Shown one piece after another: positions 1-44,900 of a DNA stretch of 64,000 nucleotides (position 1 is the stretch's first letter; each line of letters opens with the position of its first letter). The DNA is from Mytilus trossulus. Its lineage: Eukaryota. The DNA is taken from positions 34,410,001 through 34,474,000 of the forward strand of contig NC_086384.1 in the NCBI RefSeq assembly GCF_036588685.1. Direction: 5' to 3'. A program made the translations under genes and the position numbers. The notes below the pieces were generated by a model. It saw only the letters and a list, made by a program, of their open reading frames with translations. It did not search any database and was not told the DNA's origin.

Positions 1-447
1 GTACATGTAAGACCACTAATTTGCTACCCCTTAACTGGTCTATTAAAACAGATTTCACTGTACATATAAGACCACTAAATTGCTATCCCTTAAGTGATCT
101 ATTAAAACAGATTTCACTGTACATGTAAGACCACTAATTTGCTACCCCTTAACTGGTCTATTAAAACAGATTTCACTGTACATATAAGACCACTAAATTG
201 CTATCCCTTAAGTGATCTATTAAAACAGATTTCACTGTACATGTAAGACCACTAATTTGCTACCCCTTAAGTGGTATATTAAAACAGGTTTCACTGTACA
301 TGTAAGACCACTAATTTGCTATCCCCTAAGTGGTCTATTAAAACAGATTTCACTATACATGTAAGACCACTAATTTGCTATCCCCTAAGTGGTCTATTAA
401 AACAGGTTCCACTGTACATGTGAAACCACTAATTTGCTATCTCTTAA
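1..447. repeat. 59-bp tandem repeat, left block (~7.5 copies, continues off window)
   Basis: Unit gtacatgtaagaccactaatttgctatcccttaagtggtctattaaaacaggtttcact, with internal inverted repeat agaccact/agtggtct. Confidence 0.95.
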
Positions 448-728
448 GGCCTAAAAAAAATAATGTTGTGTTTCCGATCACCCCCTTGAAATTTTTAAGG
501 GACGGTAGGTAGGGATTTTTTAATTTTTTTTTATTTTTTTTTAATATTATGCTTCATTGCTGTCTCGATTTTTTTTAAAGGCATGGGCACTTTGTTCATT
601 GCTTCAGACCATTTGACAATATTCTAGATTATTGTGTGAGTTTTTATCAGCAATATCCATTTATTTTCTTTTGTATTTTATATATTATATGATAACTTGT
701 ATAGTAGTTTACCCCCTTTTAAAATACC

Positions 729-1521
729 CATACCTGTCAACTCACCCGTTTTTTGTGGGTGACACCCGTTATTTTCACCTCTCACCCGGGAGTTTTTCTT
801 TACCCGGCGGGTCCCGGGAATTTCTAACATTACCCGTTTGACCCGGATTTCTGACCGGAATTGTTTCCGGTATTTAGAAGTAAAACCTTCGGTTTTATCG
901 GTCTTTTTCAATGTAACCAAAAGTCAAAATGTAGGACTTGTTTATCTGAGCTACGTAACGATATTTTCAACAAGCTACAAGATGAGTTCAGTGACTATCA
1001 GTTGACCCCATTAGATGAACTTCCACTTTGCACTTCCCCTGAAACTGACATTGGTACATTTTGGGGAGAAATGTCCAAGTTGCATGACATTTTTCTTAAC
1101 AAGCCAAGATTTTTTGTTTTGTCAAAACTTGCTAAAACATTACTGGTTTTTCCAAACAGCAATGCAGACAGTGAGAGGGCATTTTCTTTAGTAAAGAAAA
1201 TAGCTACAGAGTTTAGGGCTGATCTTAATAAGGATACACTGTGTGCTCTTCTTTCTTGTAAAATGAATACACATTTGCATTGCTATGAACTGAAACCAAG
1301 TGCAGTTCTTTTAAAGAATGCCAAGTCTGCTACTATGGAATATAACAAACTTGTATACATGTTCTAACTGTTTCATATACATATTGACTATATAAATTAT
1401 ATGTAAACATTTTTTTTTCTTCAATTGAGCCCGCAAAATGTCGTACGCGTTATGACCTGAGATTTTTTTTCTCAATGCAGGTCATGACCTGACTTTTCAT
1501 TTTCAGAGGTTGACAGGTATG
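729..1521 (+). mobile_element. Internally deleted hAT-family DNA transposon with 13-bp TIRs and 6-bp TSD
   Basis: TIRs CATACCTGTCAAC (729-741) / GTTGACAGGTATG (1509-1521); AATACC on both flanks; carries a transposase C-terminus. Confidence 0.85.
861..1367 (+). pseudogene. hAT transposase C-terminal (dimerisation domain) fragment
   Basis: FW...LSKLAKTLLVFPNSNADSERAFSLVKKIATEFRADLNKDTLCALL matches the hAT C-terminal SxAxxERxFS motif; N-terminal and catalytic parts missing. Confidence 0.85.
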
Positions 1522-2433: not shown

Positions 2434-2818
2434 AAGTGGTCTATTTAAACAGGTTTCACTGTACATGTAAGACCACAAATTTGCTATCCCTTAAGTGGTC
2501 TATTAAAACAGGTTTCACTGTACATGTAAGACCACTAATTTGTTCTCCCTTAAGTGGTCTATTAAAACAGGTTTCACTGTTCATGTAAGACCACTAATTT
2601 GCTATCCCTTAAGTGGTCTATTAAAACAGATTTCACTGTACATGTAAGACCACTAATTTGCTATCCCTTAAGTGGTCTATTAACATAGGTTTCACTGTAC
2701 ATATAAGACCACTAATTTGCTATCCCTTAAGTGGTCTATTAAAACAGGTTTCACTGTACATATAAGACCACTAATTTGCTATCCCTTAAGTGGTCTATTA
2801 AAACAGGTTTCACTGTAC
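2434..2818. repeat. 59-bp tandem repeat, right block (~6.5 copies), abutting the LDLa 15 donor
   Basis: Same unit as 1-447; ends exactly at the donor GTACAG (2818). Confidence 0.95.
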
Positions 2819-2962
2819 CTGTACATGAGTCTTCGTCACTGTTGTCATCACAATCTTTGTCACCATCACAACGATAGTCAATCGGGATACATTGTCCATT
2901 CCTACATGTTGCTTGTCCAACACCACATGGACCAACTGGAGCAGGCGTTGTTGGTACAGTTA
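2819..2962 (-). CDS. HSPG2: Perlecan exon, LDLa 15
   Basis: 144 nt: [47 protein letters not shown]. Confidence 0.92.
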
Positions 2963-5900
2963 CTAAAAGTAGATTGAAATCATTCATGAAAGACAATGCT
3001 TTTAACATGAGCTAGGTATTATAATTCTCAATAATTATCCATAAGTCTGATTTTTTTATGACGATAAACCCCTAATCCTCCCTCTCCTATTCCTTACCAT
3101 CAGAAACTATGTCAGCTGTATAATTGTACATAACCATTCTATCGTGCCCTAATTCTCAATACAAGGGTTATATAAAGATATTTCTACCCTTTTATCAAAA
3201 CCTCTACTATTTTTTTCACATATTCACAACAGATCTTCTTTAAATTCTTATTTCAAAGCTATTTTTAATTCTGATGAAGAATTTAATGTAGTTTGTATCA
3301 TTACATGGAACATGGCAGATAAATCCTATAAAGTCTGTAATGTAGAGACAAGTTATTAATACCCTACACTCTGTTTAAGCCATATTTCCATGTATTGCAA
3401 CATAACATACTTACTTTGACTGACTACAAGCCTAGCTGATTCTGTGTATGTCCTGTCATTGTAGATACCAGAGCAGATATAATCTCCTACATCAGTGATA
3501 TCAAGGTTAGGTACTTACTTTGCCTGACTACAAGCCTGGCTGATTCTGTGTACGTCTTGTCATTGTAGATACCAGAGCAGATATAATCTCCTGCATCAGT
3601 GATATCAAGGTTAGGTACTTACTTTGCCTGACTACAAGCCTGGCTGATTCTGTGTACATCCTGTCATTGTAGATACCAGAGTAGATATAATCTCCTGCAT
3701 CAGTGATATCAAGGTTAGGTACTTACTTTGCCTGACTACAAGCCTGGCTGATTCTGTGTACGTCCTGTCATTGTAGATACCAGAGCAGATATAATCCCCA
3801 GCATCAGTGATATCAAGGTGAGGTACTTACTTTGCCTGACTACAAGCCTGGCTGATTCTGTGTACGTCCTGTCATTGTAGATACCAGAGCAGATACAATC
3901 CCCAGCATCAGTGATATCAAGGTTAGGTACTTACTTTGCCTGACTACAAGCCTGGCTGATTCTGTGTATGTCCTGTCATTGTAGATACCAGAGCAGATAT
4001 TATCTCCTGCATCAGTGATATCATATCAAGGTTAGGTACTTACTTTGCCTGACTACAAGCCTGGCTGATTCTGTGTACGTCCTGTCATTGTAGATACCAG
4101 AGCAGATACAATCCCCAGCATCAGTGATATCAAGGTTAGGTACTTACTTTGCCTGACTACAAGCCTGGCTGATTCTGTGTACGTCCTGTCATTGTAGATA
4201 CCAGAGCAGATATAATCTCCTGCATCAGTGATATCAAGGTTAGGTACTTACTTTGCCTGACTACAAGCCTGGCTGATTCTGTGAATGTCCTGTCATTGTA
4301 GATACCAGAGCAGATATAATCCCCAGCATCAGTGATATCAAGGTTAGGTACTTACTTTGCCTGACTACAAGCCTGGCTGATTCTGTGTACGTCCTGTCAT
4401 TGTAGATACCAGAGCAGATACAATCCCCAGCATCAGTGATATCAAGGTTAAGTACTTACTTTGCCTGACTACAAGCCTGGCTGATTCTGTGTACGTCCTG
4501 TCATTGTAGATACCAGAGCAGATATAATCCCCAGCATCAGTGATATCAAGGTTAAGTACTTACTTTGCCTGACTACAAGCCTGGCTGATTCTGTGTACGT
4601 CCTGTCATTGTAGATACCAGAGCAGATATAATCCCCAGCATCAGTGATATCAAGGTTAGGTACTTACTTTGCCTGACTACAAGCCTGGCTGATTCTGTGT
4701 ACGTCCTGTCATTGTAGATACCAGAGCAGATACAATCCCCAGCATCAGTGATATCAAGGTTAAGTACTTACTTTGCCTGACTACAAGCCTGGCTGATTCT
4801 GTGTACGTTCTGTCATTGTAGATACCAGAGCAGATATAATCTCCTGCATCAGTGATATCTAGGTTAGGTACTTACTTTGCCTGACTTCAAGCCTGGCTGA
4901 TTCTGTGTACGTCCTGTCATTGTAGATACCAGAGCAGATATAATCCCCAGCATCAGTGATATCAAGGTTAGGTATGATCAGACGACCTCTCTCCATGGTA
5001 GCTTTAGGTTGTATATCCTACAATAGAGAGAAAATTCATAATTTATTGATAATCAAAAGTGTATAATAACATTACATGAAGGTTTCATTATAATACATTA
5101 TTTTAATGAGCTAACAGCAATCTGGCATCATTCTTAATTTTTTTTTTTCATTTCAAAATAAAAAGCGACATTCATGATGACACATACTTTCACAATAAAG
5201 AGCTCAGTTAAATGAAAGAAAAACTTGATTGAAATCTTAATGAACCTAGGAAAATGATGTTTTGATAAGCATTGCTTTGACTGTTTGGTCAGGTTGTTGT
5301 CTCTTTGACATATTCCCCATTTCCATTCTTAATTTTATTCTTTTAGTATATAGGGTTAGAAAAGCATTGATTGAGCACACATTGTTAGATTGAAGCCCTT
5401 ACAAAATGCACTTCAGGCGAAGCTTATACCCCATCACCCCCCCCCCCCTCTCAATTAATTTACAAAGAGAAGCATTGTTCTACAATCTTGATAAAGGAGG
5501 ATAGCACCTAGTTAAGAATTAACCTAGACACTTTCTCAAGTTTGAAAAACCATTTATAATATCTATAATCTATTTACACATATTCTCTAGGACCAAGGAT
5601 CCAGATTTTTTTTCACCTTATTTCAGTCACTACTGACAGATAATTTCCATTCTGAACACAGTAGAGTGATATGATCATTTATTGTTGGAAAGTAAGGGCC
5701 CACATCCCCTATGTCAATGAAATCAACAATGACGTCATAGGTAAAATTGCAATAAACAGATTATATTGGTCACTTCTACTCGATTGCTTTTCTCACTTTT
5801 CACCGTACCAGCTGAAGCAAGAAAATCAATCTTGTTGAGATTACCAAAGATAACGTATAAATTTTAGACACTTACAATATTTCCATTTCTGTACCATTCT

Positions 5901-8900
5901 AATGGTGTGTCTGCTGGTGATATAGTACACTCAAAATAAGCCTGAGATCCTACTCTCAAAGTCATCTCTCTGGGAGTAATGCTGATGGTTACTTGTTGAG
6001 AAGCTACAAAAGAAAATAATATTGTTATTTTTTACAATATATATTATTTACTGAAATATCATGCAACATCTCTATATTAAGTCATTAGGTCTGGGAAAAC
6101 AGTTATCTTCCTTCAATTTTAGTTGAGCAGAAATGAGTGATTTGGTTAGGTAAAACAGGTGTAACTTCATCTTCTCGGAATCTCTCTGGCTTCACCCATA
6201 CCCATACCGCAGTCCTTGTGTTTTGTAATGCCAGAGAAAATGAGCTGATGAAGTTTTCTTAATTTTTGATGTTTTTAATTACACAACAAAGATCATTTTT
6301 CCCACAGAAAATAGAAAATTGAAATGTTTGCCCCTGGAGCACCTCATCAAGATCTATATAGAAATTGAAATAGATAAATTAGAGAAAATAAAAGCAAAAT
6401 TCAATAATATGAAAAATATAATCCTCCATGCCTCAACAGAATGAAACATTTGACTCAACTTTCTTTTACAAATATAAGAATGTCACATCTTTCTTTCCTA
6501 TGTAGATTCTCCCCCTCTAATTTGGTATCTGATTAGCTATTTTCCTAATGTAATACTACATCTTTCTAAATTGTAATGAATACTTGACAGGTATTCTAAA
6601 AGTTCCAATCATTTTATAAACTGTTGTGTTCGTATATTGTAAATTTACATACGACAATTCAGTTCATCTGAGCCATCACGACAATCTGATCTCCTATCAC
6701 ATCTACGGTCAGCAGGGATACAGTCTCCACTTCTACATGTAAATTCATTTGGTTGACATCCTGTAATGAAAAAGTTTATGTGTAACCTGGTATATCCAAA
6801 ACCAGCATGAATAAAATTATTATTAAAAGTTTGATCTGTTATCCTGTAATTTCTACAATCAGCAAGTATACAGTCTCAAATTGTTTCACTTTATCCTTTT
6901 ATTGCATTTTTTTCATCTATATTTGCTGTTTTAGCTTAAAAAATTATATAGCTATACACATTAATTTAGTAATTTATTTAAACAGTCCCATCGATTAAAC
7001 AGAACAAAGCTATTGGTCATTAAATCAAAGTTCTAAAAGTACTGTGGATTCATTTATTTTTTCGTGGTTAAAAATTTTGTTGCATTGAGGAAAAAATATA
7101 ATTCCTGGATATCTGATTTTGTGGTGTTTGCCAAAGTCTAGGAACAAATCTATTGAAAATGTGTTCCTGTTTTGAATATCTGAATTCATGTTTTACCAAC
7201 ACCCAAGTAGTTTACCAAGAATATTATTGAATCCATAGTAAATTTAAAATTTATTCTTAACATCTTCAGAATCTAAACAACTGCTTAGCACACAATCATA
7301 TACAAATGTCTGATGATTTTTAACTGTTCCCTTCTTCACTAAAATGTGTAAAGTTGACCCTTACCACATCCCTCCTCATCAGAGTTGTCCAAACAATCCC
7401 TGTTACGATCACACTGCCGCCTGTTATCAATACACTGACCATTACTGCAGCGGAACTCGTTGGGTTTACAAGCTGTGATAAAAAATAACACGTCATATAT
7501 TTCATACTTTGAAAGCACTTTTCTGAGTGTAAATTCATCAGGAAATGAGAACATGAGATCAAAGGTGATTTTTTTATGGGGTTCTTTTTTCTCAGTCTAG
7601 TTTTCTATTTTGTACTTTATTTTCTGTTGTTTGTCTTGTGGTTGTTGTATTATTTTTTGGCCATTGCATTGTTATTCTGTTTTTGACTTATGAGTTTGGT
7701 ATCTTTTACTATCTTTCTTTTGAAAACCAGGGATATAAAGTTGCATCATCGCACGCACTGGAAGATTGTCTATTGCCGTAACATTTTCTTCTTTCATATT
7801 ATCAGTTTCCTTCTAATTTTAAAAAATACACAAATCAACAAAAGAAGGTGTTAATCTGAAAAGGATTTTAAATATATGAAAGTTTGTATACTTAAAACCT
7901 TAATGACTAGTAGTAGCTGAAAAAATGTAATTTTTGTCAATGATGCTTAAAGAATAAATTTCTAGCAAATAAAAAGTAAAAATTACAAGGAAGTGTGAAC
8001 AAATCGCAAATTGCAATAATAAATTGTCTTAGATGTCCAAATCAACAAGACTCTGTACAAAGTCAGGACAGTGACAGTTGTTAACCATTCGTCTGACTTG
8101 TTTTGAGGTTTTGATTATGCCATTTGATTAGTGACTTTCTACTTTTACAGCTAATTTCCTAATGCATGTGAAGCAAGACTTATAATGGTTAGTTTGCTTG
8201 CTTTATTTTTATATTGTACAATCATTAGGATAACACCCAATTAAATTCAAATAATATATAGTCAGGTTAAACTATGCCTATATATATTGTTTAAAGATTT
8301 CAATCTTATTTTATAGACAATTATACAAACAAAGCAAGCAAGCCAACCAAAGTTTTGCCTTACATGCATTAGGAAATTAGCTGTAAATTTTCCTCACAGT
8401 TTGTCACTTTTGTTATTTGACTTTTTTCTTACCACAGCCTTCCTCGTCAGTTCTATCAGAACAGTCAGCGAAACCATCACATTTTCTAGCCGCTGGTATA
8501 CACTGGAATTGTTGTGTACAAGTAAACTGATCGGCACGACAATTCAACGTGGCTACGAGAGAAAAAAAAGACATAATTAAAAGGATTACTGTAAACCAAC
8601 TTTACTTCACATTTTAACCATTTTAGTCCATGTCACAGCTTTTTTATTTTGCTATTTTGTAACTAACTTGATGGAGTTTTTAAAAAGTAAAGATCCAAGT
8701 TTGATATTTTCACAACAATTTCACATTATTTGACTACTAATGTAAGTTGTGAAATCAAATCACTTACAAAGACAAGTTGGTTTACAGTATTTCAAATCCG
8801 TCCTCAATCCAGTGTTTTGATCATTCTTAATTTTAACTGCATTTTATGCATTCTTTACCACCAAAAAATCAAACATTTCACAAGAAACAATTGATCTAGT

Positions 8901-11900
8901 TTATCAGTGAATAGAAGGATAATAGAATAGTTGACATTGGGATAACATAAATTATCTCCCTTGTATTAACCAATCAAAGTCTAGCATTTTGACATTAAGC
9001 ATGATTAATTTGTCAACTTCTATAGTTAACACAAGTTTTCTTTGAAGCTGGCAAATGTCCTTTCTTATTTATTTTTGTGACAAAATTGAAGCTGGCACAT
9101 GTCTTTTCTTATTTATTTTTGTGGCAATTGCCAATTTCATTCAATTGAAGCTGGCAAATGTCTTTTCTTATTTATTTTTGTTGCAATTGCCAATTTCATT
9201 CAATTAAATCTGCAACTGCATGTTTAAACTTATATAAATACATTTTATGTACTGTAAATTTAGAAATTAGTGTGAGAATTTTTATTGCTATAACTGTAGA
9301 CAATGTGAGTAATTGTGAGATTAATCTGCATACAAATAAATGTACTGTGGTTTCATTATTTTTCGTTGGATACCAATTTTCGTGGATTTTATGGGTACAG
9401 ATGAACCACGAATTTAAATGATCAACGAATTACAAATTTTCAATAGACTTGCATGCAGACTTTGGCAGAACCACGAAATTAAATATCCACGAAAGTCCAA
9501 GTTTTGTTCAATCCACAAAAATTTGTGCCCACGAACATAAATGAATCCACAGTATCAGATATCAGAATGTGTGTTCTGATTACTGTGACACTCCCCCAGT
9601 CGCATTATAATTTGCATTAAGGTAGTACCTAATACTACAGGGAGATAACTCTATAAAATCAGCTAAATGTTTTAATTACGTTGTGTTTTTAAGGTAAAAT
9701 TATGCTTTTCAAAGATCAAAATAAGTTTTTGTCAAACTGCTATATAACCAGTGTAATTTTTCTGAAAAAACGGTTGGTTGAAATTTTTTCAAATTTTTAT
9801 ATTTTTGTCAAAGGGTCAAAGTAAATACTTTGTCAAAATTTTAAGAAAATTAAACGAGCCAAATTAATTTTAGTTAAAGTGTTGGGTACCACCTTAACAC
9901 GTCAGAATTATTTCTGAATTCATGGTAAATACATAATTTCAGCAACTTATTGCTACATGTCTATAAAAATAAAAATGCTGAAGAAAAAAAAAACTCAATC
10001 GTAAACTTTAGAAAAACTAAACTTACGACAATTATTTTCGTCAGAATTGTCCACACAGTCTCTGACACCATCACACTCTTTAACAAGGTTGATACATGTA
10101 CCATCACTGCAACGGAATTCATCAGGGCGACATGTGGATACTACAAAAGTCAAACAAAACTTCTTTTATAAACATTTATTCTAAAACATTACAGGTTGTT
10201 ATTATTCACAAATCCCCACTAAGTTTACAAAAAAAATAACAATATTATATCTAAATGATAAATAATTGTGTGTAAATTGTTGTAACTGGTTAATTTTCAT
10301 TCTGAATTTCAAAGCCAAAGCTGATGACGTGTACAGCATTTTTTTGTCTTCTTGTCTGATTTAGACAACGAAAATGATTTTTATTTTTTTTAATTTTTTT
10401 TCTGAATCTACACAGTAAACCTTGGAATCATTAAATTTCCTTGGTAAGAATCTTTGTATTTTCCTTGAAACCTGATTCTTTACTTTTCTATCTTTCTTTG
10501 TAGAAGCAAGAAGAAAGTTTGCATTTGTTGAACATTAGAATTTTTGGTTTACATATACCCAAGATATCCAAAAAAAATTAATTCCTCACAAATGACAACT
10601 TCAACCAACTGTAACTCATACTGATGATTTGATCTTAAATAACAAGAAAATGTTACATGGAATACTTATGTACTTTGATACATTCCCCATTTCCATTCTC
10701 AATTTTATTATGGAAAACTCATGAAATAATCCTGGAACACTCATGAAATAATCCTGGAATACTCATGAAATAATCCTGGAATACTCATGAAATAATCCTG
10801 GAATACTCATGAAATTTCTTTGTTATACTGTAACTTAAGGAATACTCCTCGAATAATCATGTAATACTTGTGAAATAATCATAAAATAATCATGGAATAC
10901 TCTTGGAATAATCATTGAATACTCTTGGAATACTTATGGAATACTTCTAAAATAGTTATAGTATACACAAAGATTACTCATGGAATACTTATGGAATACT
11001 CTTGGAATAATCATTGAATACTCTTGGAATACTTGTGGAATACTCATGAATACTTCTAGAATAATCATGGAATACACAAAGATTACTCATGGAATACTTA
11101 TGGAATACTGGAATACTTTTGGAATACTCACCACATCTGCTATGTTCATCTGATCGATCAGTACAGTCAGTAATTCCATCACACTCCTGCATGGCATCAA
11201 TACACTTGGTACCATCTCTACATTGGAACTGTCTTAGACTTGGACAACCACAATATTTAGGAAATTCGTCTGACCCATCTCTGCACTCTGTACGGTCATT
11301 ACAGCCACTTCCTTGCCTGGCACATGACCCGTCGTCACAGACGTACTGACCTGTACGACATGGACCTCCTGGGCCTGTAGATTATACAAAAAAATCTATT
11401 AGGTTCACAAACAAGGTATTTTACCAGAATGAAATGTATAATACATAAAAATTATGGCAAGATTATAAGGTGTGTGAGTGTTTCTTAAAGGGAAAATTCA
11501 CGATTTTTTACTTATGGTTTAAATATGTTCATTATGATATAATATATATATTCACAAAGTTTTATCGCTATATGTTCAGTAATAAAGGAGAAATTCAATA
11601 TTTAATGAAAAAATATTAACTACTTCCTGTAGGTCGTGACGTTTTCTCCTGGTTTTTGCATGCCGGGATTTAAAAAACAATCATTAAAAGTCTTGGTTTC
11701 TAATCATATTTTAACGTAATCGTAAGCGCGCCGATGACTTATGCTTTATCTAATAACCATCCGATAATAAGAAGATAAAACGCACATACGTTCAATTGTA
11801 CATATTCATGAGATAAATTTTCTATGTTAAACGTATATATTCGAATTATTTTTGTAGACAACACAAAAAGTTATAAATTGATTTTTAATTAATGTATTTT

Positions 11901-14900
11901 CGGACTGATAAGGTGAACAAAGTAAAGTACAATAATCTATAAAGACAATATGTTGGTGTACTCTTATTGACCTTTTACTATCTCTGCTATGACTTGGTTG
12001 ATACGATGTGTGTATTCACGGTTCTGTAGCAATACTCGTAGATGGCTTGTTGAAAGGTAAATTGTTATTTGCACTTCGGTATTTAACCACGCCTCTCGGG
12101 CACACCTTGCCAGGTGTGACTGTCTATTCGGATCAGTGAATTATAAGACAAGGGGAGCATCCAATACACATATTTAAAATATATATTTAAGTTGGTGACA
12201 AATAAAAATTGATCGCCGTGGAATTATTTAATTATGTTTGGTGCTATTATTTATTTGAATTCAAATAAGTTAATTTACTAAGAAATACACAATTTTTGGT
12301 TAAAGACGGGAAACTTAATTCATATGTCCGATTGAAATGATTTACACCTTTTGTCCTTGATTGATGTCTAATAAAAAGGAGAACTTAGAAATTATAAATA
12401 GCTTTACCAAAGTATTTTTATTTGTCTTTATTAGGCAAATAAATGAATGAGAACACTTAGATTTAGACTTTTTAAAAGCCACGTACAAATGAATAACTGG
12501 AACTCACTGAAGACTACTCTACCGAAGCGGAATATAATATGAACGAATAAAGAAAAAATACTTTTGTACTTGAGAAGTCTTAAACATTGACAGCAAATTT
12601 AAGGTCTTCTTGGAATGGAATCGAAAAATTACGAATAGATATTCTTTATCAAGTGTGAAAAACGTCAACCAAATTTAATCATAATCGGGGACGTCCTTAT
12701 TAAAGTAGTCTTCGTCTCACAACGTATAATACTTAATAACTATTTGACCAAAGATGTTTAAAAACAAAAGACAACGAATTTAATGTCATCTTTCCCTATT
12801 TTTGAATGTAATTATAAGTCTGTTCAACTGGCAAGAACACCCCTAAAGCGGACAAACATCTGTCAAGCAGTTTATTCTTTAAATTTGCTGTCATTGAATA
12901 TCAAGAAAGAAAATAAATCCTGAAAATGATTTGAAACTTTAATACTCAATAGCTTTCCTAGAAAATATTCACATCCCTCGGGGATTATTAGTGTACGTCC
13001 AGTTGCATATGTCGGAACAGTTGTGGTGATGACGAATTTCTTTCTTTATTCGAGAACAATCTAATTGATATATAAATCTGTGATTTTACTATGTTCATAA
13101 CTTCGATGAACCAAAGCAAGTTATAGATCGACCTGTATTTAAATCAAATTGGTCCTCTTCTTCTTCTTCTTCTTCTTTTGGTATACAATAGTCTATCGAA
13201 TTGGATGATTACATACTGTTGGTATACGTGGACTAGTCTATTTACAAAACTTTTACCCCAATTTGCACAAAATGTATGTTTCTTTCTTATGTTCAATGTA
13301 TACATGTATATATTTTAAATTGCGCTGTATTTCCGTAACTTTCTATCCGGGCGTATAAACGAATCGTCGACAAGTGCGCACATTTTTTTAATCAACATTT
13401 CTGGAATGATCCAACTATGTCCTTTACTATTGACAACGAGTAAATATTACATTATCCCAGAGACATATAATACAATTTTATGTCTCTGATTTTCTCCAAA
13501 TTAACCCTTGGAAAAAATACGTATATTTGTATATCTTCAATTTTTTTATTTTTTTTGGTATCATTTTTTTTTTTATAAATAATATTCTTTACACCAGACA
13601 TTTTATTTATAAACAAGCGTATGAGTTAAGTAATGACTAGTATATTATATCACTTTCGGACACGCAAGACAGAGATGTATATTATACATGCACCTGATAG
13701 TTCAAAATGGAAAGTTATAAGTTATCGGCCGTGTACACTGATCAATACCTACAGAAGTGAAACGATGCATGAACTTGCAGGCCCGACAGGAAATCGCTTG
13801 AATACCTGGTCGTGTCATCTTACACCCCTCACAATACCTTTGGGAGTAATACCTAAGCCATGCGGGTGATCAGTGGAGCGAAGATCCTAATTTATTTGAA
13901 TAAAGTATATTACTTTAAAGAATTATGAACGAATTGATTTTCGAAAACAATTTTCACGGAACTCTTATTTATGATTTGAACTTTAACTTTTTAACTAATA
14001 CCAATATTAACAGTTTAAAAATAACAGACTATATGGTTATTAAAAATATAAGAACATTTTCCGAATCAAGTTAGTTAGTCAGATCATGGAAGTAATATCT
14101 AAATATCTAAATATTACTTCCATGGTCAGATAAAACAACCGTACGATTGACAAGATATAGACACGTAATTACGACAACATCGGTTACTGTAGTTTTGATT
14201 CTTTATGGTTTATAGACATATCGTGATTTTTATTTGGACAAGATAACAAAATGGCGGAAGGCAAAGAACTGATACTCAAAATTTAAAATCGATGGTGATC
14301 TCTTATCTAGCGGAATAAAACTTTAATATTTATAAATTTGAGCATTTTTATACAGAATGGACATAATATGAATTTTTGATTTTTTTGCGAAGTTTCCCTT
14401 TAATGAGATACAAGTATTTGAAAGAACAAAAAAAAAAAAAAAAAAAAACCAATTTCATGAGTTAGGTCCTTACCAAAAATAGAAAAGACTTTGCTACTTC
14501 TCTGTTGATTTTTAGAGCAAATAAAAACCTCAACTTTGTCTAGAATTTATCCATAAAATGTTTCAGAGTTAATCACCAACAATAACCAACATTCACTTTT
14601 AATATTCACCACTTGAGAGTGAAGTCTAACTGAATTAACCTGTGAGAAATGTAGTAACAAGGGTCTGGATGGGGGATGGGCTTGTTATATTTGTATTCTT
14701 TAATATTTAGGCCATCATTCTTTATTTTTTATATTTTAACACAAAATTGTTCTCTATTTTTTAGTTTTTGGTCTATATTTCTTTTTTCTTTAATTCTTGG
14801 CATATTTTTTTATTTTTTTAAATTTTTTGGCCTATTTGTATCTGTTCACTTTTCTTATTTGCACACTTCTTTAAGGTATTGGCCAATGTTATCAAAAATC

Positions 14901-32900: not shown

Positions 32901-35900
32901 ATTAGTCTTGTAAGTTGTCATTGTCCTTAGCAGTTGTTTAGCACAGCAAATTGGTGGTAGTTTATGAGTTAATTAAAGGTGTGGAAAACTGAACACAGTA
33001 CAATGAAATGTCACAAAATAGTTAATACAATTTTTATACATTGAGGGTAACAACTTGTAAGGAGGACAAAACAGGTTACATGTAAAATATGACAGCTCAA
33101 ATGAAAAATGATATAATTTCAGAGTTATTCTATCCAATATTAATGTCATGATTTGCACCTATAATATAAACAAGACGACAGGTAGAACATGTAGAGCAAG
33201 ATCTGCCTACCTTTCCTGAGCACCTGAGATCACCCCCAGTTTGTTTAGTCCTTAGTTTTCTATGTTGTGTCTTCTGTACTATTATTTGTCTGTTTCTCTT
33301 TTTATTTTTTAGCCATAGCGTTGTCAGCTTAATTTCAATCTATGAGTTTGACTGTCCCTCTGGTATCTTTTGTCCCTCTTTTGCAATTCAATAGATACAG
33401 CTATTATTTTCATAACCAGTTTCATTATAAAAACCTTAACCCAATCCCCAAATCATGATCCTGCCCAAAACTGAAAATTTAATTTACACTTCTTAAACAT
33501 GAAACCTCAGTTTTGCAAAAATAAAAGCTGAAACAATTTCCTAAAATGCAATAAATTAAATCTGCTTTTTAAAGACATGTGGGTTATCTAGTTTTGTCTA
33601 TAATGCAGGGTTCACACATTGCCGATTATTTCTCCCGTTTGAGATCAGACAGCGATACGAAACGAAAAGTGAAAAAGTCGGATTACTATATATCCTCAAT
33701 TATCTGGAATGTCTTACCATTGTCTGAATGCAGTCATTAAAGTTTGTAACAGATTCCTACAGGTCTGGAAGGGTCCAAATAGTTCGACGAAGCACCCTGA
33801 CAGTTAGGTGCATCCCATAACATTCCAGGAAACTCAGCCGATTTAGTCTAGTCGGATTACAATCGTGCCTATGTCGTGATAGATTCTGCTGTATCAGATC
33901 ACAATCCTAACGATGTTCTGTGTATTCTGGACGGTGTCATGTGTAACAGGAATGATCTGGGGAAGTTTTTCATTGCTTTTTTTCTGCCGATTGAGTCCAG
34001 ATTGCATCCAGATCTTGTCGATTGCGAACCATTTTTGCCAAAACCGTCCGGAACAGTCCCGTTATTAATACGAAATTCGTCAATGATACCCACGTCCCAA
34101 CAATTACAGAATACAATATGACTTAGACGAGACAAAGCCGTTTGGAATGTGATAGAGCGGACCGCGATGGGATTAAGTTCCGACAGTACCTGATCATCCT
34201 GAGTATGCAAACAGTTTTTCGAACGGATAACTTCCGTCAGCGTTGGTTCACTGTCTGGTCACTGTCTGATCTCTGTCGTATTAAATTCGGTAGAATCGGG
34301 ATGCAGTCGTAACAGAGTTGGTCAAAATTTACTTGGCGAAAGTACAAATTGGATTAGAAGCGGATTGAGAAAGGGATTATCGGGATAAATTCGCCTGGAA
34401 ACGGTTGATTATCGACACTTCCTGAACAATATCTGATTGTTGTCATGATTAAATTATTTGTTTTACAAATTTTTATTAAAGTTTGAATTTCCATCCACGA
34501 TTCACAGGATCTTGATCAGACTTTTGACAAATTTAAATCGGGAATGATTCTGTCAAGGACTGCGGTTAAAATCGTGAATGTGTGACCCCAGCTTAAGATG
34601 AGAATAACTTTATGCCATTGGTAAGGATATCCATTGATAAGTGCAGATTAGCAATTCAAAATGTTTTTAAATGTTCTTTGAAAATTTGACTCAAGATATT
34701 ACTTCTGATTTGTGCTGTCAAAATTTCACTTCCATAAAACGTGAAAAAAAGAACAAAATATACAGAATATAATTATGTGTACAAATAAGGTACACAAAAA
34801 GCACATGTATATCTCTGAATAATCAATTTTCAATCATTTTAGTGATAAAGCTAGATATAAAGGTTTCAGTGCAAAATTTGAGTTCATGAATTTTTTAAGT
34901 TAAATAGGAAGAAGGGTTTTAAGCTCAAAATTTAAATAAATCCAAGAGGAGATAACTTACGACAATTGTCTTCATCGCTGTCATCGGCACAGTCAAACTG
35001 TCTATTACAAACGAAGACTTTGGGTACACACTGCTGCTTGTTATTACAACGAAACTCATCAGTATTACATATGACAGCCGCTGAAAGCATAAAAACAATA
35101 ACATAAAATAACAGTTGATGTGTAAAACAAATTGTTGTCAAATTTTATAGGAGAAACACAATTTGGATTAGTACGTGTCTAATGTGGAAAAGGTCTGATT
35201 ACTCTTCCAAACCACATGGTTTGTGTTGATAAGTTTTCTATGTTGTTTTTCCTCTACTGCTGTAAGTCATTTGGTCTGTTTTTTGTTTTTTGCCTTAGCC
35301 TTGACAGTTAGTTTGAGTTTGAAAAGCCCTTTGGTCTGTTTTTTGCCTTAGCCTTGACAGTTAGGATGAGTTTGAAAAGCCCTTTGGTCTGTTTTTTGTT
35401 TTTGCCTTAGCCTTGACATGAGTAACACAATTTGGATTAGTACATAAAATTGAGAATGGAAATGGGGAATGTGTCAAAGAGACAACAACCCGACCAAAAT
35501 AAAAAAACACAACAGCAGAAGGTCACCAACAGGTCTTCAATGTAGCGAGAAATTCCCGCACCCGGAGGAGTCCTTCAGCTGGCCCCTAAACAAATATATA
35601 CTAGTTCAGTGATAATGAACGCCATACTAATTTCCAAATTGTACACAAGAAACTAAAATTTAAATAATACAAGACTAACAAAGGCCAGAGGCTCCTGACT
35701 TGGGACAGGCGCAAAAATGCGGCGGGGTTAAACATGTTTGTGAGATCTCAACCCTCCCCCTATACCTCTAACCAGTGTAGAAAAGTAAAAGCACAACAAT
35801 ACGCACATTAAAATTCAGTTCAAGAGAAGTCCGAGTCTGATGTCAGAAGATGTAACCAAAGAAAATAAACAAAATGACAATAATACATAAATAACAACAG

Positions 35901-38900
35901 ACTACTAGCAGTTAACTGACATGCCAGCTCCAGACTTCAATTAAACTGACTGAAAGATTATGATTTCATCATATGAACATCAGGCACAATCCTTCCCGTA
36001 AGGGGTTTAGTATCATACCATCATAACATATATGAGAAGAACATAACCCGTGTCATGCCAACAACTGTTTTTAGAATAAATGTGTTTAGTTCCGACGCAA
36101 AGACCTTATCAGTGACTCAATATTAACGCCAAAATATGCAATCTTTAATGACTTGACAACAGTATCGTAATTATATCCCTTCTTAATAAGTCTATTCAAA
36201 GGTTTTGTAAGTTTATGAGGTGAATACTGACACCTTTGTGCTTTATAAAGAATATTTCCATAAAAAATTGGATGTGAAATACCTGAACGTATAAAAAGTC
36301 TGCATGTTGAGCTATATTTACGAATGATGTCTTTATACCGATGATAAAATTTAGTAAATGTTTTGACTAGTTTGTGATATCGAAAACCCTGGTGTAATAA
36401 TTTTTCAGTAATACATAAATTTCTCTCGTTAAAATCTAAAACATTGTTACATACACGAGCGAATCGTACAAGTTGAGATATATAAACACCGTAAGATGGT
36501 GACAAGGGAACGTCACCATCTAAAAACGGATAATTAACGATAGGAAATGAAAAATCATCCCTTTTATCATAAATTTTAGTATTCAGCTTTCCGTTAGTGA
36601 TATAGATGTCAAGATCGAGGAAAAGTCTAATGTGGAAAAGGTCTGATTACTCTTCCAAACCACATGGTTTGTGTTGATTAGTTTTCTATGTTGTTTTTCC
36701 TCTACTGCTGTAAGTCATTTGGTCTGTTTTTTGTTTTTTGCCCTAGCCTTGACAGTTAGTTTGAGTTTGAAAAGCCCTTTGGTCTGTTCTTTTGCCTTAG
36801 CCTTGACATTTAGTATGAGTTTGAAAAGCCCTTTGGTCTGTTTTTTGTTTTTTGCCTTAGCCTTGACAGTAAATATGAGTTTGAAAAGCCCTTTGGTTTG
36901 TTTTTTGTTTTTTGCCTTAGCCTTGACAGTTAGTATGAGTTTGAAAAGCCCTTTGGTCTGTTTTTTGCCTTAGCCTTGACAGTTAGTATGAGTTTGAAAT
37001 GCCCTTTGGTCTGTTTTTTAGTTTTTTGCCTTAGCCTTGACAGTTAATATGAGTTTGAAATGCCCTTTGGTTTGTTTTTTTGTTTTTTGCCTTAGCCTTG
37101 ACATTTAGTATGAGTTTGAAAAGCCCTTTGGTCTGTTTTTTGTTTTTTGCCTTAGCCTTGACAGTAAGTATGAGTTTGAAAAGCTCTTTTGTCTGTTTTT
37201 TTGTTTTTTGCCTTAGCCTTGACATTTAGTATGAGTTTGAAATGCCCTTTGGTCTGTTTTTTAGTTTTTTGCCTTAGCCTTGACAGTTAGTATGAGTTTG
37301 AAATGCCATTTGGTTTGTTTTTTTGTTTTTTTCCTTAGCCTTGACAGTTAGTATGAGTTTGAAAAGCCCTTTGGTTTGTTTTTTTTGTTTTTTGCCTTAG
37401 CCTTGACATTTAGTATGAGTTTGAAAAGCCCTTTGGTCTGTTTTTTGTTTTTTGCCTAAGCCTTGACAGTAAGTATGAGTTTGAAAAGCCCTTTGTTCTG
37501 TTTTTTTTTTTTTTTTGCCTTAGCCTTGACAGTTAGTATAAGTTTGAAATGCCCTTTGGTTTGTTTTTTTGTTTTTTGCCTTAGCCTTGACAGTTAGTAT
37601 GAGTTTGAAAAGCCCTTTGGTCTGTTTTTTAGTTTTTTGCCTTAGCCTTGACAGTTAGTATGAGTTTGAAAAGCCCTTTGGTTTGTTTTTTAGTTTTTTG
37701 CCTTAGCCTTGACAGTTAGTATGAGTTTGAAAAGCCCTTTGGTCTGTTTTTTGTTTTTTGCCTTAGCCTTGACAGTAAGTATGAGTTTGAAAAGCTCTTT
37801 GGTTGTTTTTTTGTTTTTTTGCCTTAACCTTGACATGAGTATGAGTTTGAAAAGCCCTTTGGTCTGTTTTTTGTTTTTTGCCTTAGCCTTGACAGTAAGT
37901 ATGAGTTTGAAACTTTGGTCTGTTTTTACTTTTTTGCCTTAGCCTTGACAGTTAGTATGAGTTTGAAAAGCCCTTTGGTCTGTTTTTTAGTTTTTTGCCT
38001 TAGCCTTGACAGTTAGTAAGAGTTTGAAATGCTCTTTGTTTTTTTCTTTTTTGTTTTTTGCCTTAGCCTTGACATTTAGTATGAGTTTGAAAAGCCCTTT
38101 GGTCTGTTTTTTGTTTTTTGCCTAAGCCTTGACAGTAAGTATGAGTTTGAAAAGCCCTTTGTTCTGTTTTTTTGTTTTTTGCCTTAGCCTTGACAGTTAG
38201 TATAAGTTTGAAATGCCCTTTGGTTTGTTTTTTTTTTGTTTTTTGCCTTAGCCTTGACAGTTAGTATGAGTTTGAAAAGCCCTTTGGTCTGTTTTTTGTT
38301 ATTTGCATTAGCCTTGACAGTAAGTATGAGTTTGAAAAGCCCTTTGGTTGTTTTTTTGTTTTTTTGCCTTAACCTTGACATGAGTATGAGTTTGAAAAGC
38401 CCTTTGGTCTGTTTTTTGTTTTTTGCCTTAGCCTTGACAGTAAGTATGAGTTTGAAAAGCCCTTTGGTCTGTTTTTACTTTTTTGCCTTAGCCTTGACAG
38501 TTAGTATGAGTTTGAAAAGCCCTTTGGTCTGTTTTTTAGTTTTTTGCCTTAGCCTTGACATTTAGTATGAGTTTGAAAAGCCCTTTGGTTTGTTTTTTAG
38601 TTTTTTGCCTTAGCCTTGATAGTTAGTATGAGTTGGAAAAGCCCTTTGGTTTGTTTTTTGTTTTTTGCCTTAGCCTTGACAGTTAGAATGAGTTTGAAGA
38701 GCCCTTTGGTTTGTTTTTTTAGTTTTTTGCCTTAGCCTTGACAGTTAGTATGAGTTTGAAAAGCCCTCTGGTTTGTTTTTTTGTTTTTTGCCTTAGCCTT
38801 GACAGTATGTATGAGTTTGAAGAGCCCTTTGGTTTGATTTTTTGTTTTTTGCCTTAGCCTTGACAGTTAGTATGAGTTTGAAAAGCCCTTTGGTTTGTTT

Positions 38901-41900
38901 TTTTGTTTTTTGCCTTAGCCTTGACAGTAAGTATGAGTTTGAAAAGCCCTTTGGTTTGTTGTTTTGTTCGTTGCCTTAGCCTTGACATTTAGTATGAGTT
39001 TGAAAAGCCCTTTGGTCTGTTTTTTGTTTTTTTGCCTTAGCCTTGACAGTTAGTATGAGTTTGAAAAGCCCTTTGGTCTGTGATTTGTTTTTTTGCCTTA
39101 GCCTTGACAGTTAGTATGAGTTTGAAAAGCCCTTTGGTCTGTGATTTGTTTTTTTGCCTTAGCCTTGACAGTTAGTATGAGTTTGAAAAGCCCTTAGATA
39201 TCTTTTGTCTCTTTTAAATAAAAACTAAAAAAATTGATGAAAATTTTATCCAGATGTTTTTTGTCTCTAATGGTCACCATGATCAAACTTACTTTGGAAG
39301 TGATTAGATGTATGGTTCAACAGATTTATTTATCATTTACAGATCATTTCAGTCAGTATGTAGCTAATAGTAATATCTTTGGTTAGCTTGCTTGTTAACT
39401 GAACCGTGAAGTCATTGTTAGGTAAGGTAAACTTCCCTCCTTTAAAAGTAGACTAGCCCAACAGATAAAAAATCTATCTCTCTGTAGGACTAAGTCTACT
39501 ATTAAAGGAGGGAAGTTTACCTTACCTAACAATGACTTCACGGTTCAGCTAACAAGCAAGCTAACCAAAGATATCACCATTAGCTACATACTGACTGAAA
39601 TGTGCTGTAATATATAGCTACTGTAACCTTGTCCCTTGACTCAAAATAAATACAAGTCTTTTTCATCAAAATGTCCATGATATAAACCAAGGACAAATTT
39701 TTTTTTTTTTTATGGTTTAAAAGAATGGTGACCTGAATATTACTTGTAAGTATCAAGTGAGTTCCAAGGCATTGTAACCTGGATATTATTTGACTTGGTC
39801 TTTGACCTAGTGACCTCAAACTCAATAGGATCTTTCTCACCCCAATGAGACAATGTTACACATATTGGTAAAATAACTGATTATGGCTTAAAAAATATAT
39901 CCGACTTTATGCAAAATTTCTTAAAAGGTTCAATTAAAACATGTAATTGCTGCTATCAATGTAAAAATAAGAGTTTACCCCAAAAAAACATAACTACTGT
40001 AAATTCAGAAATCATTTCGTGCATTTATTATTGCGATTTTGTCATGCGCTTTTAAATTTTATGATTTTGAGAAAATGCATGTTTAATTCATATAAAATAT
40101 TTCAAAATGAGAGTTTAATTTATTGTGTTTACAACTCCATCACATTTTTCACAATAATAAAAAACTCTCATTAATTTCTGAACTTACAGTAACCCAAAAG
40201 TTTTGAAAAATCAAACTAGAGGCTCTAATTATAAAGAGCCTGTGTCGCTCACCTTGGTCTATGAGAATATTAAACATGGTAAGCAGATGTATTCATGACA
40301 AAATTGTGTTTTGGTGATGGTGATGTGTTTTTACATCTTACTTTACTGAACAATCTTGCTGCTTACAATTATTTCTATCTATAATGAACTTGGCCCAGTA
40401 GTTTCAGTGGAAAATGTTATTAAAAATTTACAAATTTTATGAAAATTGTTAAAAATTGACTATAAAGGACAATAACTCCTTAGGGGGTCAATTGACCATT
40501 TCAGTCATGTTGACTTATTTGTAAATCTTACTTATTTGAACATTTACAGATTGTCTCTATCTATAATAATATTCAAGATAATAACCAAAAACAGCAAAAT
40601 TTCCTTAAAATTATCAATTTAGGGGCAGCAACCCAACAACGGGTTGTCCGATTCATCTGAAAATTTAAGGGTAGATAGATCTTGACCTGATAAATAATTT
40701 AACCCCAGTCAGATTTGCTCTAAATTTGCTAAGCCAAAAACTGCATTTTACCCCTATGTTCTTTTTTAACAGTGGCGACCATCTTAGTTGGATGGTCGGG
40801 TCACCAGACACATTTTTTTAACTAAATACCCCAAAAATAAGTGTGGCCAAGTTTGGATTAATTTGGCCCAGTAGTTTCAGAGAGAATATTTTTTGTAAAA
40901 GATTACTAAGATTTGCGAAAAATGGTTAAAATTGACTATAAAGGGCAATAACTCCTAAAGGGGTCAACTGACCATTTCGGTCATGTTGACTTATTTGTAA
41001 ATCTTACTTTGCTGAACATCATTGCTGTTTACAGTTTATCTCTATCTATAATTATATTCAAGATAATAACCCCAAAACAGTAAAATTTCCATAAAATTAC
41101 AAATTCAGGGGCAGCATCCCAACAACAGGTTGTCCGATTCAACTGAAAATTTAAGGGCAGATAGATCTTGACCTGATGAACAATTTAACCTATGTCAGAT
41201 TTGCTCTAAATGCTTTGGTTTTGAGTTATAAGCCAAAAACCACATTTTACCCCTATTTTCTATTTTTAGCCATGGCGGCCATCTTGGTTGGTTGACCAGG
41301 TCACCAGACACATTTTTTAAACTAGATACCATAATAATGATTGTGGCCAAGTTTGGTTTAATTTGGCCCAGTTGTTTCAGAGGAGAAGATTTTTGTAAAA
41401 GTTAAAGCCAGACAACACCGGACGCAAAGTGATGGGAAAAGCTCACTTGGCCTTTTAGGCCAGGTGAGCTAAAAAAAATCAAAGCATCATCTTAAAAATA
41501 AATTTCCAATTAGTCTCTTTAAATAATTTTATACCAATGAACTGAACAGAATTATCTGCAAATAAAACTACTGGACTTGACTATAGGTCAATAAAACTTA
41601 CGACAGTTAAGTTCATCTGACTCATCATTACAATCAATTTGTCCGTCACATTTAAACCTTCCATCTACACAATCACCATCATCACAACGGAACTGGTTGT
41701 CTGCACATCTTGATGGGGTAACAGATCCTGAAAATTTATTCATAGTTAGTTGATATGATCAAGAGGTAGAACATGATAAACAAGAATGCATCCATAGTAC
41801 ACTATATCATTTTCTATATTCAGTCCACCATCAATTTGGGTCAATACCTAATTTGGCATTAAAATTAGAAAGATCATATCATAAGGAAGATATGTACTAA

Positions 41901-44900
41901 GTTTCAAATTGAAAGGACTTCAACTTCATCAAAAACTACCTTGAACAAAACTTTAACCAAAAACTTTAACCTGAAGTAGGACAGATGGATGAACGAATGG
42001 ATAAAACGAGGCACAGACCAGAGAACATAAATGGGGCATAAAAATAACAAACAAGAAAACTACTGTAAATTCAAATTTTCTTAAATGGATCTTTAATTTG
42101 AGATCACTTGAAATGTAAGGCCGTATTTTCAAACTGTTGAATTATGATTACCAGAGAACAGAGGACATGGATGGATATGGTAAGGTCTTTAATGTACATA
42201 CACCTTCAAAAATGAGCAAAACTCATAGGTAATAGTAAGCTATAAAACTTTTTTAAAGGCCTCTGAATGACAAAACATGAAACGTTTGTAACAAGAAAAC
42301 CACCCATGGTATTTCAAAGTCCTTTATAGCTGACTATGCTGTATGGGATTTGCTCATTGTTGAAGGCCATAAAGTGACCTATAGTTGATTATTTCTGTGT
42401 CATTTTAGTCTCTTGTGGAGAGTTGTCTCATTGGCAATCATACCACATCTTCTTTTATATATGACCAATTTAACAACTTACCATCTATACCAGTGTAATC
42501 CATTATAGCTTTAAGGGCAAAAGTAGCTTTTGTATCCAGAAAGTCAGTGCCATTTAACAACTTACCATCTATACCAGAGTAATCCATTATAGCTTTAAGG
42601 AAAAAAGTAGCTTTTGTATCCAGAAAGTCAGTGCCATTTAACAACTTACCATCTATACCAGTGTAATCCATTATAGCTTTAAGGGCAAAAGTAGCTTTTG
42701 TATCCAGAAAGTCAGTGCCATTTAACAACTTACCATCTATACCAGTGTAATCCATTATAGCTTTAAGGGCAAAAGTAGCTTTTGTATCCTGAAACTCAGT
42801 GCCATTTAAATTTATTATGCTTCCAGTGCTTGCGTCTTCATTGTAGATTCTTGCGTAATAATTTTGATACAATTCTCTGTCGTTAACAGTATCTTCTGCT
42901 CGTGTGGCACTGGCAACCACGCCTTCTTCTGCCAGTTTTGGATAAAAGATACCAATGAAATCTCCTTTCTCGACAGCAATTGGTGGATCAACGAAGACAG
43001 TCTGGTTTCCTTCATTGGCAATTGGAAGTTCTGTTTTACCGATAAGTCGAAACTGTAAATCGTTGATTTGTCTCCAGACACCAACATAGCCAGTGTAACG
43101 AGGAACAATACGATAATATTGCCAAGCAACGACATAACCACGGCATGGAAAGATGTTGTTTATAAGAAGATTGGCACGGTTGTCTCCGGAGCGAGGTAAT
43201 CTTGAAGGGTCCCTTCCAACAAAATCTGGACATGTTCTTCCATCTGTAATTAAATATCAAATTTTAGTCAGAAGATTTTCATATTACATTGTAGTTTACC
43301 TAAATATGTTAAGTTTTTTAAATTTTTTATTCTAAATATTTGAAACAGTTACGGCTAAATGCCCTTCAGTTGCATAATGCATTTATGTGTAAATTATATA
43401 ATTGTAACAACAGAAAGAAAAGTTTAAAATTGATAGTCAAATGTACCAATTGCAACATACACTAAAATACTAATAAAACATATAGTTAGTATTTATACTA
43501 ATGAAAAATACATTACCTCTTTCAAAAACAATCCCGTATTGTGCAAAAGCAAAATATAGGTTAAAAATTATAAAAATACATTTCCGAAACAAATCCATGT
43601 TTAGAATGTTCAAATTACATCACAGATATTATTTTCAGTTTACATAGCGGGCAATTTTTTTAAAAACTTTTACACAAACAAATCAGATAAAATAACAACG
43701 CTTTATTCATGTCATTATATAAGTACATGTAAAATAAACTCATGCTACACAATATAAGGATATCATAAATACAAGGTAAATGTAAATGTACATGTATCTC
43801 ACTTTGATCTGATCTAATAACAGGTTACGCTGAAGTTTTAAATAAATATTTCAAATAAAAAAGAAATCATAACCCCGCAATTATAATGTAATCAATACTT
43901 AAATGACTAACCGTAATTGATCATTAACTGTTTTTTAATGTGCTAAAGAAGTCAAATGATATTTATCTTTTGAACCTTTTGAAGAGAAAAAAGGCATCTT
44001 TTCATTTTATTTTTTTTCTAAAAAAATAATTTAAAGTTGGCTTTACACACTGAAAAAAACTCAGAATAACATGAGGACTTTTGATTTTTAAAAATTGATA
44101 TATAAGATACTCGAGGAATGAATTCCTAAGGTCTTAAATTTACCAGATTCTCATATCACAAAATGATTTTAGGCATCTTTTGCAATTTGAACTACAAGCA
44201 GCATAAAAATCCCATCATAATTTACTAATCTCAGTGAACCCCATTTCACGCTCTATATTCTTAAACTTTAAGTTACCAGGATAGAAGAGGATAAGATTCT
44301 TAAAGAAAACACAACATCTATGCCAAAATGATAGTCAAACTCATAAGTCCGTCCATCTGTCCCTATCCAGGTTAACGTTTTTGGTCAAGGTAGTTTTTGA
44401 TGAAGTTGAAGTCCAAGCAACTTGAAACTTAGTAAAATGCATGTTCCCTATGATATGATGTTTCTAATTTTAATGCCTGATTAGAATTTTGACCCCAATT
44501 TCACGGTCAATTGAACATAGAAAATGATATTGCGATTGGGGCATCTGTGTACTGTGGACACTAGCTGATATTTTTGTTTCTGTTCCAATATCATTTAAGA
44601 CGGGTGCCATATGTGGAGCAGGATCTGCTTACCCTTCCAGAGCACTCCTAGTTTTTGGTGGGGTTCGTGTTGTTTATTCTGTAGTTTTCTATGTTGTGTA
44701 CTTCTGTTTGTCTGTTTGTCTTTTTCATTTTTAGCCATGGCGTTGTCAGTTTATTTTAGATTTATGAGTTTGACTGTCTGTTTCAAAAACATATTCTTGA
44801 GTCAAATTCATAGAAAATGTCACTTGACACCACATTGAAATGTCTTGGACCTATTCTATGAACCCTGGCAGAATAGCTGTCTTTCAAATACATTCAACAG

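Follow-up and report, generated by a model that had tools for sequence, protein, structure and literature searches.

Arrays of minisatellite type that copy an exon-intron boundary have so far been handled gene by gene. In lancelets, such repeats, known as 'mirages', occur in Adh3, the globin genes BflGb6 and BflGb9, troponin C and PGBD5 (PMC3087553, PMC3902484), and the work describing them calls their mechanism of origin unclear (PMC3087553). Boundary minisatellites have also been documented in five human genes, namely F7, 6-16, CBS, LMNB2 and PDGF (PMC1557585). Here, we describe comparable arrays in a mussel gene and report a measured excess of such arrays at both types of splice junction.

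The window analyzed, a stretch of 64,000 nucleotides from Mytilus trossulus, contains 21 exons of a minus-strand gene, including SEA, LDLa-repeat and Ig-like exons. Together with 65 flanking exons (86 in all), they yield 4,211 codons, none of them a stop, when joined. The exon model combines an ab initio model trained on dynein genes with hand curation. Pfam matches to SEA, LDLa, laminin B and laminin EGF domains were obtained for five of the nine exons tried, and the Ig and laminin G exons were assigned by eye from their sequence patterns. The gene shows the domain order SEA - LDLa - Ig - laminin B/EGF - Ig array - laminin G/EGF, from which we take it to be perlecan-like. Spliced contigs or reads support five of its junctions between 5017 and 10140 as well as the junction 42734/41727. 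Protein homolog searches with two window exons gave no match among proteins of up to 2,000 aa, and a third search returned vertebrate DNAH11, from which little was gained. The relevant features are listed below, with donors given as the first intron base on the minus strand (2818, 4875, 11131, 26445 and 42733).

2819..60945, onward to about window -80600, minus strand: perlecan-like gene (Pfam matches and stop-free exon joining)
1..448, extending to window -100, minus strand: second array of the 59-mer, away from any splice site
2434..2823, minus strand: array of 6.6 copies of a 59-bp unit at donor 2818; the unit derives from a repeat dispersed in the genome and lacks an exon part
2819..2962, minus strand: LDLa exon upstream of the 59-mer (gene model, Pfam)
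3408..4974, minus strand: junction copy, 15 copies of a 104-bp unit across donor 4875, with 99 exon and 5 intron nt
4876..5017, minus strand: Ig-like half exon upstream of the 104-mer; donor 4875, predicted from the model and the open frame, lies inside the first 104-mer unit
10710..11130, minus strand: degenerate array (67% matches) of 39 copies of an 11-bp unit, intronic, starting at +2 of donor 11131
11132..11374, minus strand: double LDLa exon upstream of the 11-mer (gene model, Pfam)
25549..26426, minus strand: G-rich array of 21 copies of a 42-bp unit, intronic, starting 19 nt past donor 26445
26446..26556, minus strand: LDLa exon upstream of the 42-mer (gene model, Pfam)
42468..42809, minus strand: junction copy, 4.1 copies of an 84-bp unit across donor 42733, with 76 exon and 8 intron nt
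42734..43243, minus strand: 169-aa exon upstream of the 84-mer, flanked by the SEA exons and the run of LDLa exons; its donor (first intron base 42733) lies inside the first 84-mer unit and is used according to RNA contigs

The acceptor of the Ig-like half exon is supported by an RNA joint (5016/5875). The 169-aa exon, which has neither a Pfam match nor a homolog among proteins of up to 2,000 aa, is possibly a lineage-specific perlecan domain.

A preliminary description of this DNA had reported arrays at five of the 21 5' splice sites of a gene and none at its 21 acceptors. Both observations were borne out: the five arrays and their donors lie where they had been placed, and no array is found within 150 nt of an acceptor, the nearest being 157 nt away. 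If an array is counted as being at a donor when it starts between one unit upstream and 25 nt downstream, five of the 15 window arrays of at least 150 bp are at donors, compared with 0.70 expected (Poisson P=8e-4, for a test chosen post hoc). The five had been treated as one phenomenon, which holds for two of them. The 84-mer and the 104-mer duplicate the junction itself and have the structure of the lancelet mirages and the F7 repeat, in which the unit comprises an exon edge plus splice signal and one copy is the real junction. The 59-, 11- and 42-mers, by contrast, lack any exon part and hence this structure, beginning in the intron at positions +1, +2 and +20, respectively. The 59-mer array is presumably a transposon end that inserted at the TA of the donor. 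Among the 46 matches listed for its monomer, 38, a lower bound for the genome, lie away from the locus, mostly as single monomers and on both strands, and the second array is found 2.4 kb from the first within the same intron. Its decoy donors score at most 1.7 bits, compared with 6.4 bits for the real donor.

The two junction copies carry microhomologies of 6 nt (TTAAAT, 84-mer) and 2 nt (TA, 104-mer) at the duplication. All three decoy donors of the 84-mer are intact and score the same as the real donor (10.2 bits), and reading through the copies is in frame and free of stops. In the 104-mer, all 14 decoy GTs are intact, again with scores equal to that of the real donor, and splicing at any of them would shift the reading frame. 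Arrays of this kind misguide gene prediction in practice: the ab initio model predicted false exons within the 84- and 104-mers and within a 96-mer elsewhere in the gene. The introns of the perlecan-like gene are unusually rich in arrays altogether. In the window, interior arrays comprise 44 copies of a 67-bp unit at 27876-31105, with higher-order units of 46/110/178, 40 copies of a 61-bp unit at 36785-39195, with a relative at 35270, and 18 copies of a 68-bp unit at 46824-48311. Two intronic open frames, at 855-1364 (plus strand, 170 aa) and 36089-36646 (minus strand, 186 aa), resemble the end of a hAT transposase and the end of a retroelement polymerase, respectively.

Splice-site use was assessed with contigs that we took to be RNA from an automatic guess and their spliced joins, and in which rare forms are dropped. 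Contig X5 matches 42733-43246 with no differences and then continues in the exon at 41727, so that the first donor of the 84-mer is the one used. Contig X9, from organism B, likewise exits this exon at 42734 and hence at its first donor. Two raw-read runs (X23 and X24) yielded nine reads and one read on this exon, respectively, with none at the donor. Beyond the joint, contig X9 continues in sequence missing from the window. The closest approximate match to that sequence falls at the beginning of an Ig exon ~89 kb downstream (L007, near window -46229; 7 edits in 30), and the joint represents either exon skipping over a long distance or the use of another exon. At the other junction copy, contig X5 stops at 4917, inside a 104-mer unit, and the 104-mer donor is absent from the matches listed. 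Of the suggestion that such arrays are tolerated, with the first donor being used and the distal copies harmless, first-donor use is borne out at the 84-mer, at which one contig joins the next exon. As an account of why such arrays are frequent, tolerance falls short, since tolerance alone cannot exceed the rate seen in intron interiors; an excess over that rate calls for more births, more amplification or a longer life.

Such an excess was measured in an independent sample of 1,406 introns, covering about 2 Mb in 20 of the 22 dynein heavy-chain genes, 22 of about 28 myosin genes and the rest of the perlecan-like gene, with many genes partly covered. Dyneins contributed 1,004 introns (71%), myosins 338 and the perlecan flanks 64, and the sample thus draws on three gene families and represents 0.15% of one genome of 1,299 Mb. 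Gene models were our own, generated with a spliced protein-to-genome aligner, and 1,101 introns were of high and 305 of lower confidence. Arrays were counted if their unit was at least 20 bp and their score at least 100, with a stricter set requiring at least 10 exon nt, and a filter against dispersed families was applied with the exons masked. Expected numbers came either from those interior arrays whose sequence forms no further array in the sample or from sham junctions placed in intron interiors (200 shuffles).

Tandem copies of an exon edge plus its splice signal are about four to six times commoner at both junction types than in intron interiors. Arrays span 40 donors and 28 acceptors in this sample. 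With at least 10 exon nt required, 35 donor and 22 acceptor arrays remain, compared with 5.9 expected for each from the interior arrays. Against sham junctions, the counts are 37 and 24 versus 6.7-7.0, and none of the 200 shuffles reaches the observed values, which confirms in independent genes that donors are enriched over random intron sites. The excess persists if units are restricted to 40-160 bp and the family filter is dropped (33 donors and 23 acceptors versus about 6) and if the two richest genes are left out (27 and 15 versus 4.8-6.0). It is smaller if the far ends of the junction arrays themselves are counted among the sham hits (37 versus 8.6 for donors, 24 versus 11.6 for acceptors). 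Outside the dyneins (402 introns), the donor excess is clear (8 versus about 2; 0 of 200 shuffles) and the acceptor excess weak (5 versus about 2; 6-11 of 200 shuffles). The outcome varies with the choice of null. A per-base null that includes transposon-borne satellites, which mostly have units of 161-600 bp and cannot hold a host exon, leaves an excess at donors (37 versus 21.7, or 1.7-fold; 0 of 200 shuffles) and none at acceptors (24 versus 21.9; 74 of 200 shuffles). Units shorter than 40 bp show no excess (3 donors and 1 acceptor versus 1.6), and unit length never exceeds 160 bp among the 57 junction arrays.

These 57 arrays sit on about 4% of the 1,406 introns sampled. Seventeen of them lie in two neighbouring dynein genes with 136 introns (L068-L082, G000:C3:86.54-86.69 Mb), and gene-to-gene heterogeneity is not significant (p=0.11). 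A myosin gene (L193-L195, G000:C3:75.83-75.86 Mb) carries two acceptor arrays, with 55 copies of a 33-bp and 25 copies of a 63-bp unit, both multiples of three, which contain 53 and 24 intact decoy AGs, respectively. The rest of the perlecan-like gene (L003-L009) has donor copies of 96 bp x12 (window -9739), 65 bp x2 (-40492) and 126 bp x5.6 (-60579) and an acceptor copy of 91 bp x2 (-42937). The repeat list lacks what appears to be a 110-bp duplicate of a donor near -36330/-36440, so the array counts are likely to be low.

We regard it as extremely improbable that assembly errors, annotation bias or transposon insertions produced this pattern. The 59-mer is indeed a dispersed element, three of the five window arrays are not junction copies, and the gene models are our own. 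However, the copies within an array are several per cent apart, and these differences follow a gradient that starts at the exon; the aligner handles donors and acceptors alike, and the excess, which none of the 200 shuffles reproduced, is also found in the high-confidence introns taken by themselves (28 donors and 16 acceptors versus 4.8-5.7).

As the alternative to tolerance, the preliminary description had offered a donor-biased duplication process, with transcription- or splicing-coupled breaks and microhomology repair as an example. In favor of this idea, the window has five arrays at donors and none at acceptors, donors are ahead in most strata, and intronic arrays that start within 25 nt of a donor are overrepresented (12 versus 4.9, p=0.005), with a smaller surplus at acceptors (9 versus 4.9, p=0.06). 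However, a bias confined to donors is contradicted by the 22-28 acceptor-spanning arrays in the 1,406 introns, the split of 35:22 is not significant (p=0.11), and the donor share of 0.61 fits the 0.54-0.59 expected from the lengths of the splice signals once the longer acceptor signal is allowed for (p=0.35-0.79). At the donor share of 59% measured elsewhere, a 5:0 split has a probability of about 0.07, and the donor-only picture in the window is likely to reflect small numbers, given a slight preponderance of donors, combined with three arrays that merely abut a donor. An apparent cluster of breakpoints at +7 to +16 of donors disappeared after correction for unit length (KS p=0.38), which leaves a mechanism based on nascent RNA or the U1 footprint without support. 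The donor-only idea is thus not supported, and we consider donor-specific breakage a very improbable source of the arrays. The excess at both intron ends instead suggests that the exons themselves are likely to seed them. Unit lengths modulo 3 (0/1/2) were 16/11/13 at donors and 13/9/6 at acceptors, with no clear in-frame bias in an informal comparison.

The arrays are also polar. Among those of at least five units, the window 104-mer included, the pair of neighbouring units at the exon end is more alike than the pair at the far end in 19 of 27 cases, with the reverse in one (p=0.0006). Interior arrays show no polarity (n=37), and for acceptor arrays alone it is not significant (p=0.15). In 28 arrays, the intron part of the unit is 0.92 identical to the first decoy and 0.78 identical to the native continuation. 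Further features bear the marks of selection: no array lies inside an exon in 271 kb of exon sequence, none of the 28 acceptor units has fewer than 16 intron nt, compared with 6.9 expected, and the real donors are stronger at array-bearing sites (9.5 versus 8.5 bits). Decoy GTs are kept in 216 of 226 and decoy AGs in 183 of 186 cases, values that are biased upward by the way in which the decoys were located. Reverse transcription of lariat intermediates as a source of the acceptor units found no support, with their intron parts spread over 16-78 nt.

It is conceivable, although we think it unlikely, that arrays are born evenly along introns and only persist longer at junctions, with a unit that has one selected copy decaying more slowly and escaping whole deletion while interiors turn over. 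No new mutational process would be needed, and both junction types, the floors just described and, in part, the polarity would be explained; intron interiors are also rich in dispersed satellites, which make up 70 of the 203 interior arrays. However, one held copy should, by our reasoning, at most about double the lifetime of an array, and with identity serving as an imperfect age clock, the excess is strongest among homogeneous multi-copy arrays (14 donors and 9 acceptors versus 1.0 at three or more copies and at least 95% identity, thus 9-14-fold) and small (1-2-fold) among diverged ones with less than 85% identity. Moreover, if arrays were shielded from deletion, this effect should taper off only across hundreds of bases, whereas the density of array edges drops from about 40-46 per 100 kb within 25 intron nt of the junction to about 10 beyond 50 nt, where it is flat.

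A second possibility is that exon chromatin, through nucleosomes or gene-body methylation, attracts repair that misfires into duplications of 40-150 bp, with those inside exons being purged and those across exon edges left behind. Consistent with this notion, genes with a higher coding CpG o/e tend to have fewer junction arrays per intron (43 genes; Spearman -0.32, p=0.037), and eight CpG-rich genes have them at 2 of 152 introns, compared with 55 of 1,254 in the others. However, Fisher tests at two thresholds gave p=0.08 and 0.57, the CpG-rich class consists entirely of myosin genes and is thus confounded, CpG is found at 3 of 59 exon-side breakpoints against a background of 10%, and the GC content of interior units equals that of introns (0.306 versus 0.304), which also speaks against GC-driven expansion. 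On balance, we hold this explanation to be improbable.

As to the model that we favor, we are evenly divided between belief and doubt: local duplications would be anchored in the conserved exon, grow from the exon end and persist because the splice-site copy nearest the exon body is used. The first step is seen in the arrays themselves: a piece of 20-150 bp containing the exon edge and its splice signal is duplicated in place, between short microhomologies in the two cases in the window. Exchange or repair between alleles may then pair best in exons, because mussel genomes are SNP-rich and widely hemizygous, leading to template switches at the exon edges and to unequal exchange that would re-copy the exon-side unit again and again. 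Mussel heterozygosity has been put at 1.73%, with 36.78% of one assembly hemizygous (PMC7653742), and in some human minisatellites the active end coincides with recombination hotspots (PMC2599865). Exon definition would choose the innermost donor or acceptor, so that the decoys are spliced out, as seen at one donor and presumed for the rest. Lancelets, too, are very heterozygous. Finally, to judge from the arrays that are absent, selection may purge duplications inside exons and those that cut the innermost splice signal.

The choice of splice site deserves particular attention. A plain first-come rule, as in F7, would purge acceptor arrays, yet these are common, which favors use of the innermost site, and we infer that this site is generally used, in keeping with exon definition. 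The apparent bypassing of up to 53 intact upstream acceptors likewise favors exon definition over first-come use. More broadly, conserved exons may anchor an ongoing duplication process in highly heterozygous broadcast spawners that makes minisatellites across splice junctions, with growth from the exon end, and affects about 1 intron in 25, a generalization that we put forward tentatively and with more doubt than confidence. If it were true, each genome would hold thousands of natural splice-site competition experiments, the lancelet mirages would have a genomic cause, and intron gain and exon extension could draw on a permanent stock of decoy sites. In any event, the measured excess and the exon-ward polarity turn a 'tolerated oddity' into a testable claim on where duplications arise or are sustained.

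The arrays share clear similarities with known systems. Like the lancelet mirages, which are portrayed as minisatellite-like boundary copies at 5' and 3' boundaries with decoy signals and normal splicing (PMC3087553), they occur at both ends of introns. The passages describing mirages proceed gene by gene, without a rate, a null model or a donor:acceptor count, and in BflGb6 the cluster boundaries are reported to be excluded from homogenization, whereas the exon end of the mussel arrays is as homogeneous as the middle. A close parallel is also provided by the 37-bp VNTR in intron 7 of human F7, whose first monomer spans the exon-intron boundary and is followed by identical downstream pseudo-donors, with the most upstream donor alone being used (PMC1557585), as at the 84-mer. 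However, its unit has 4 exon nt (PMC1557585), compared with 76-99 in the junction copies of the window, and F7-type repeats, as portrayed there, are limited to the donor side in a handful of genes, whereas in the mussel they affect 57 of 1,406 introns, acceptors included. Human segmental duplications also show variable repeats at exon-intron boundaries, with 162 alignments and 27 intron modifications (PMC2812944), but they concern recent paralogs and changes in gene structure, and the section in question holds no test against intron interiors (PMC2812944). Transposon-carried bivalve satellites (PMC7492417, PMC3879986), in turn, are the likely source of the 147-192 bp arrays that recur in many introns and possibly of the 59-mer, whose monomer is dispersed in the genome; they differ from the junction copies in that they travel with their element and hold no host exon. 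The preliminary description had known of no general mechanism of this kind in molluscs. The structure itself, as far as the cited passages go, was on record for both boundaries in lancelets and for five human genes, and a search of the openly available full-text literature returned no published measure of the excess and no genome-scale count of junction-spanning arrays. The type of repeat is therefore already known, and its excess at splice junctions and its polarity toward the exon are apparently new.
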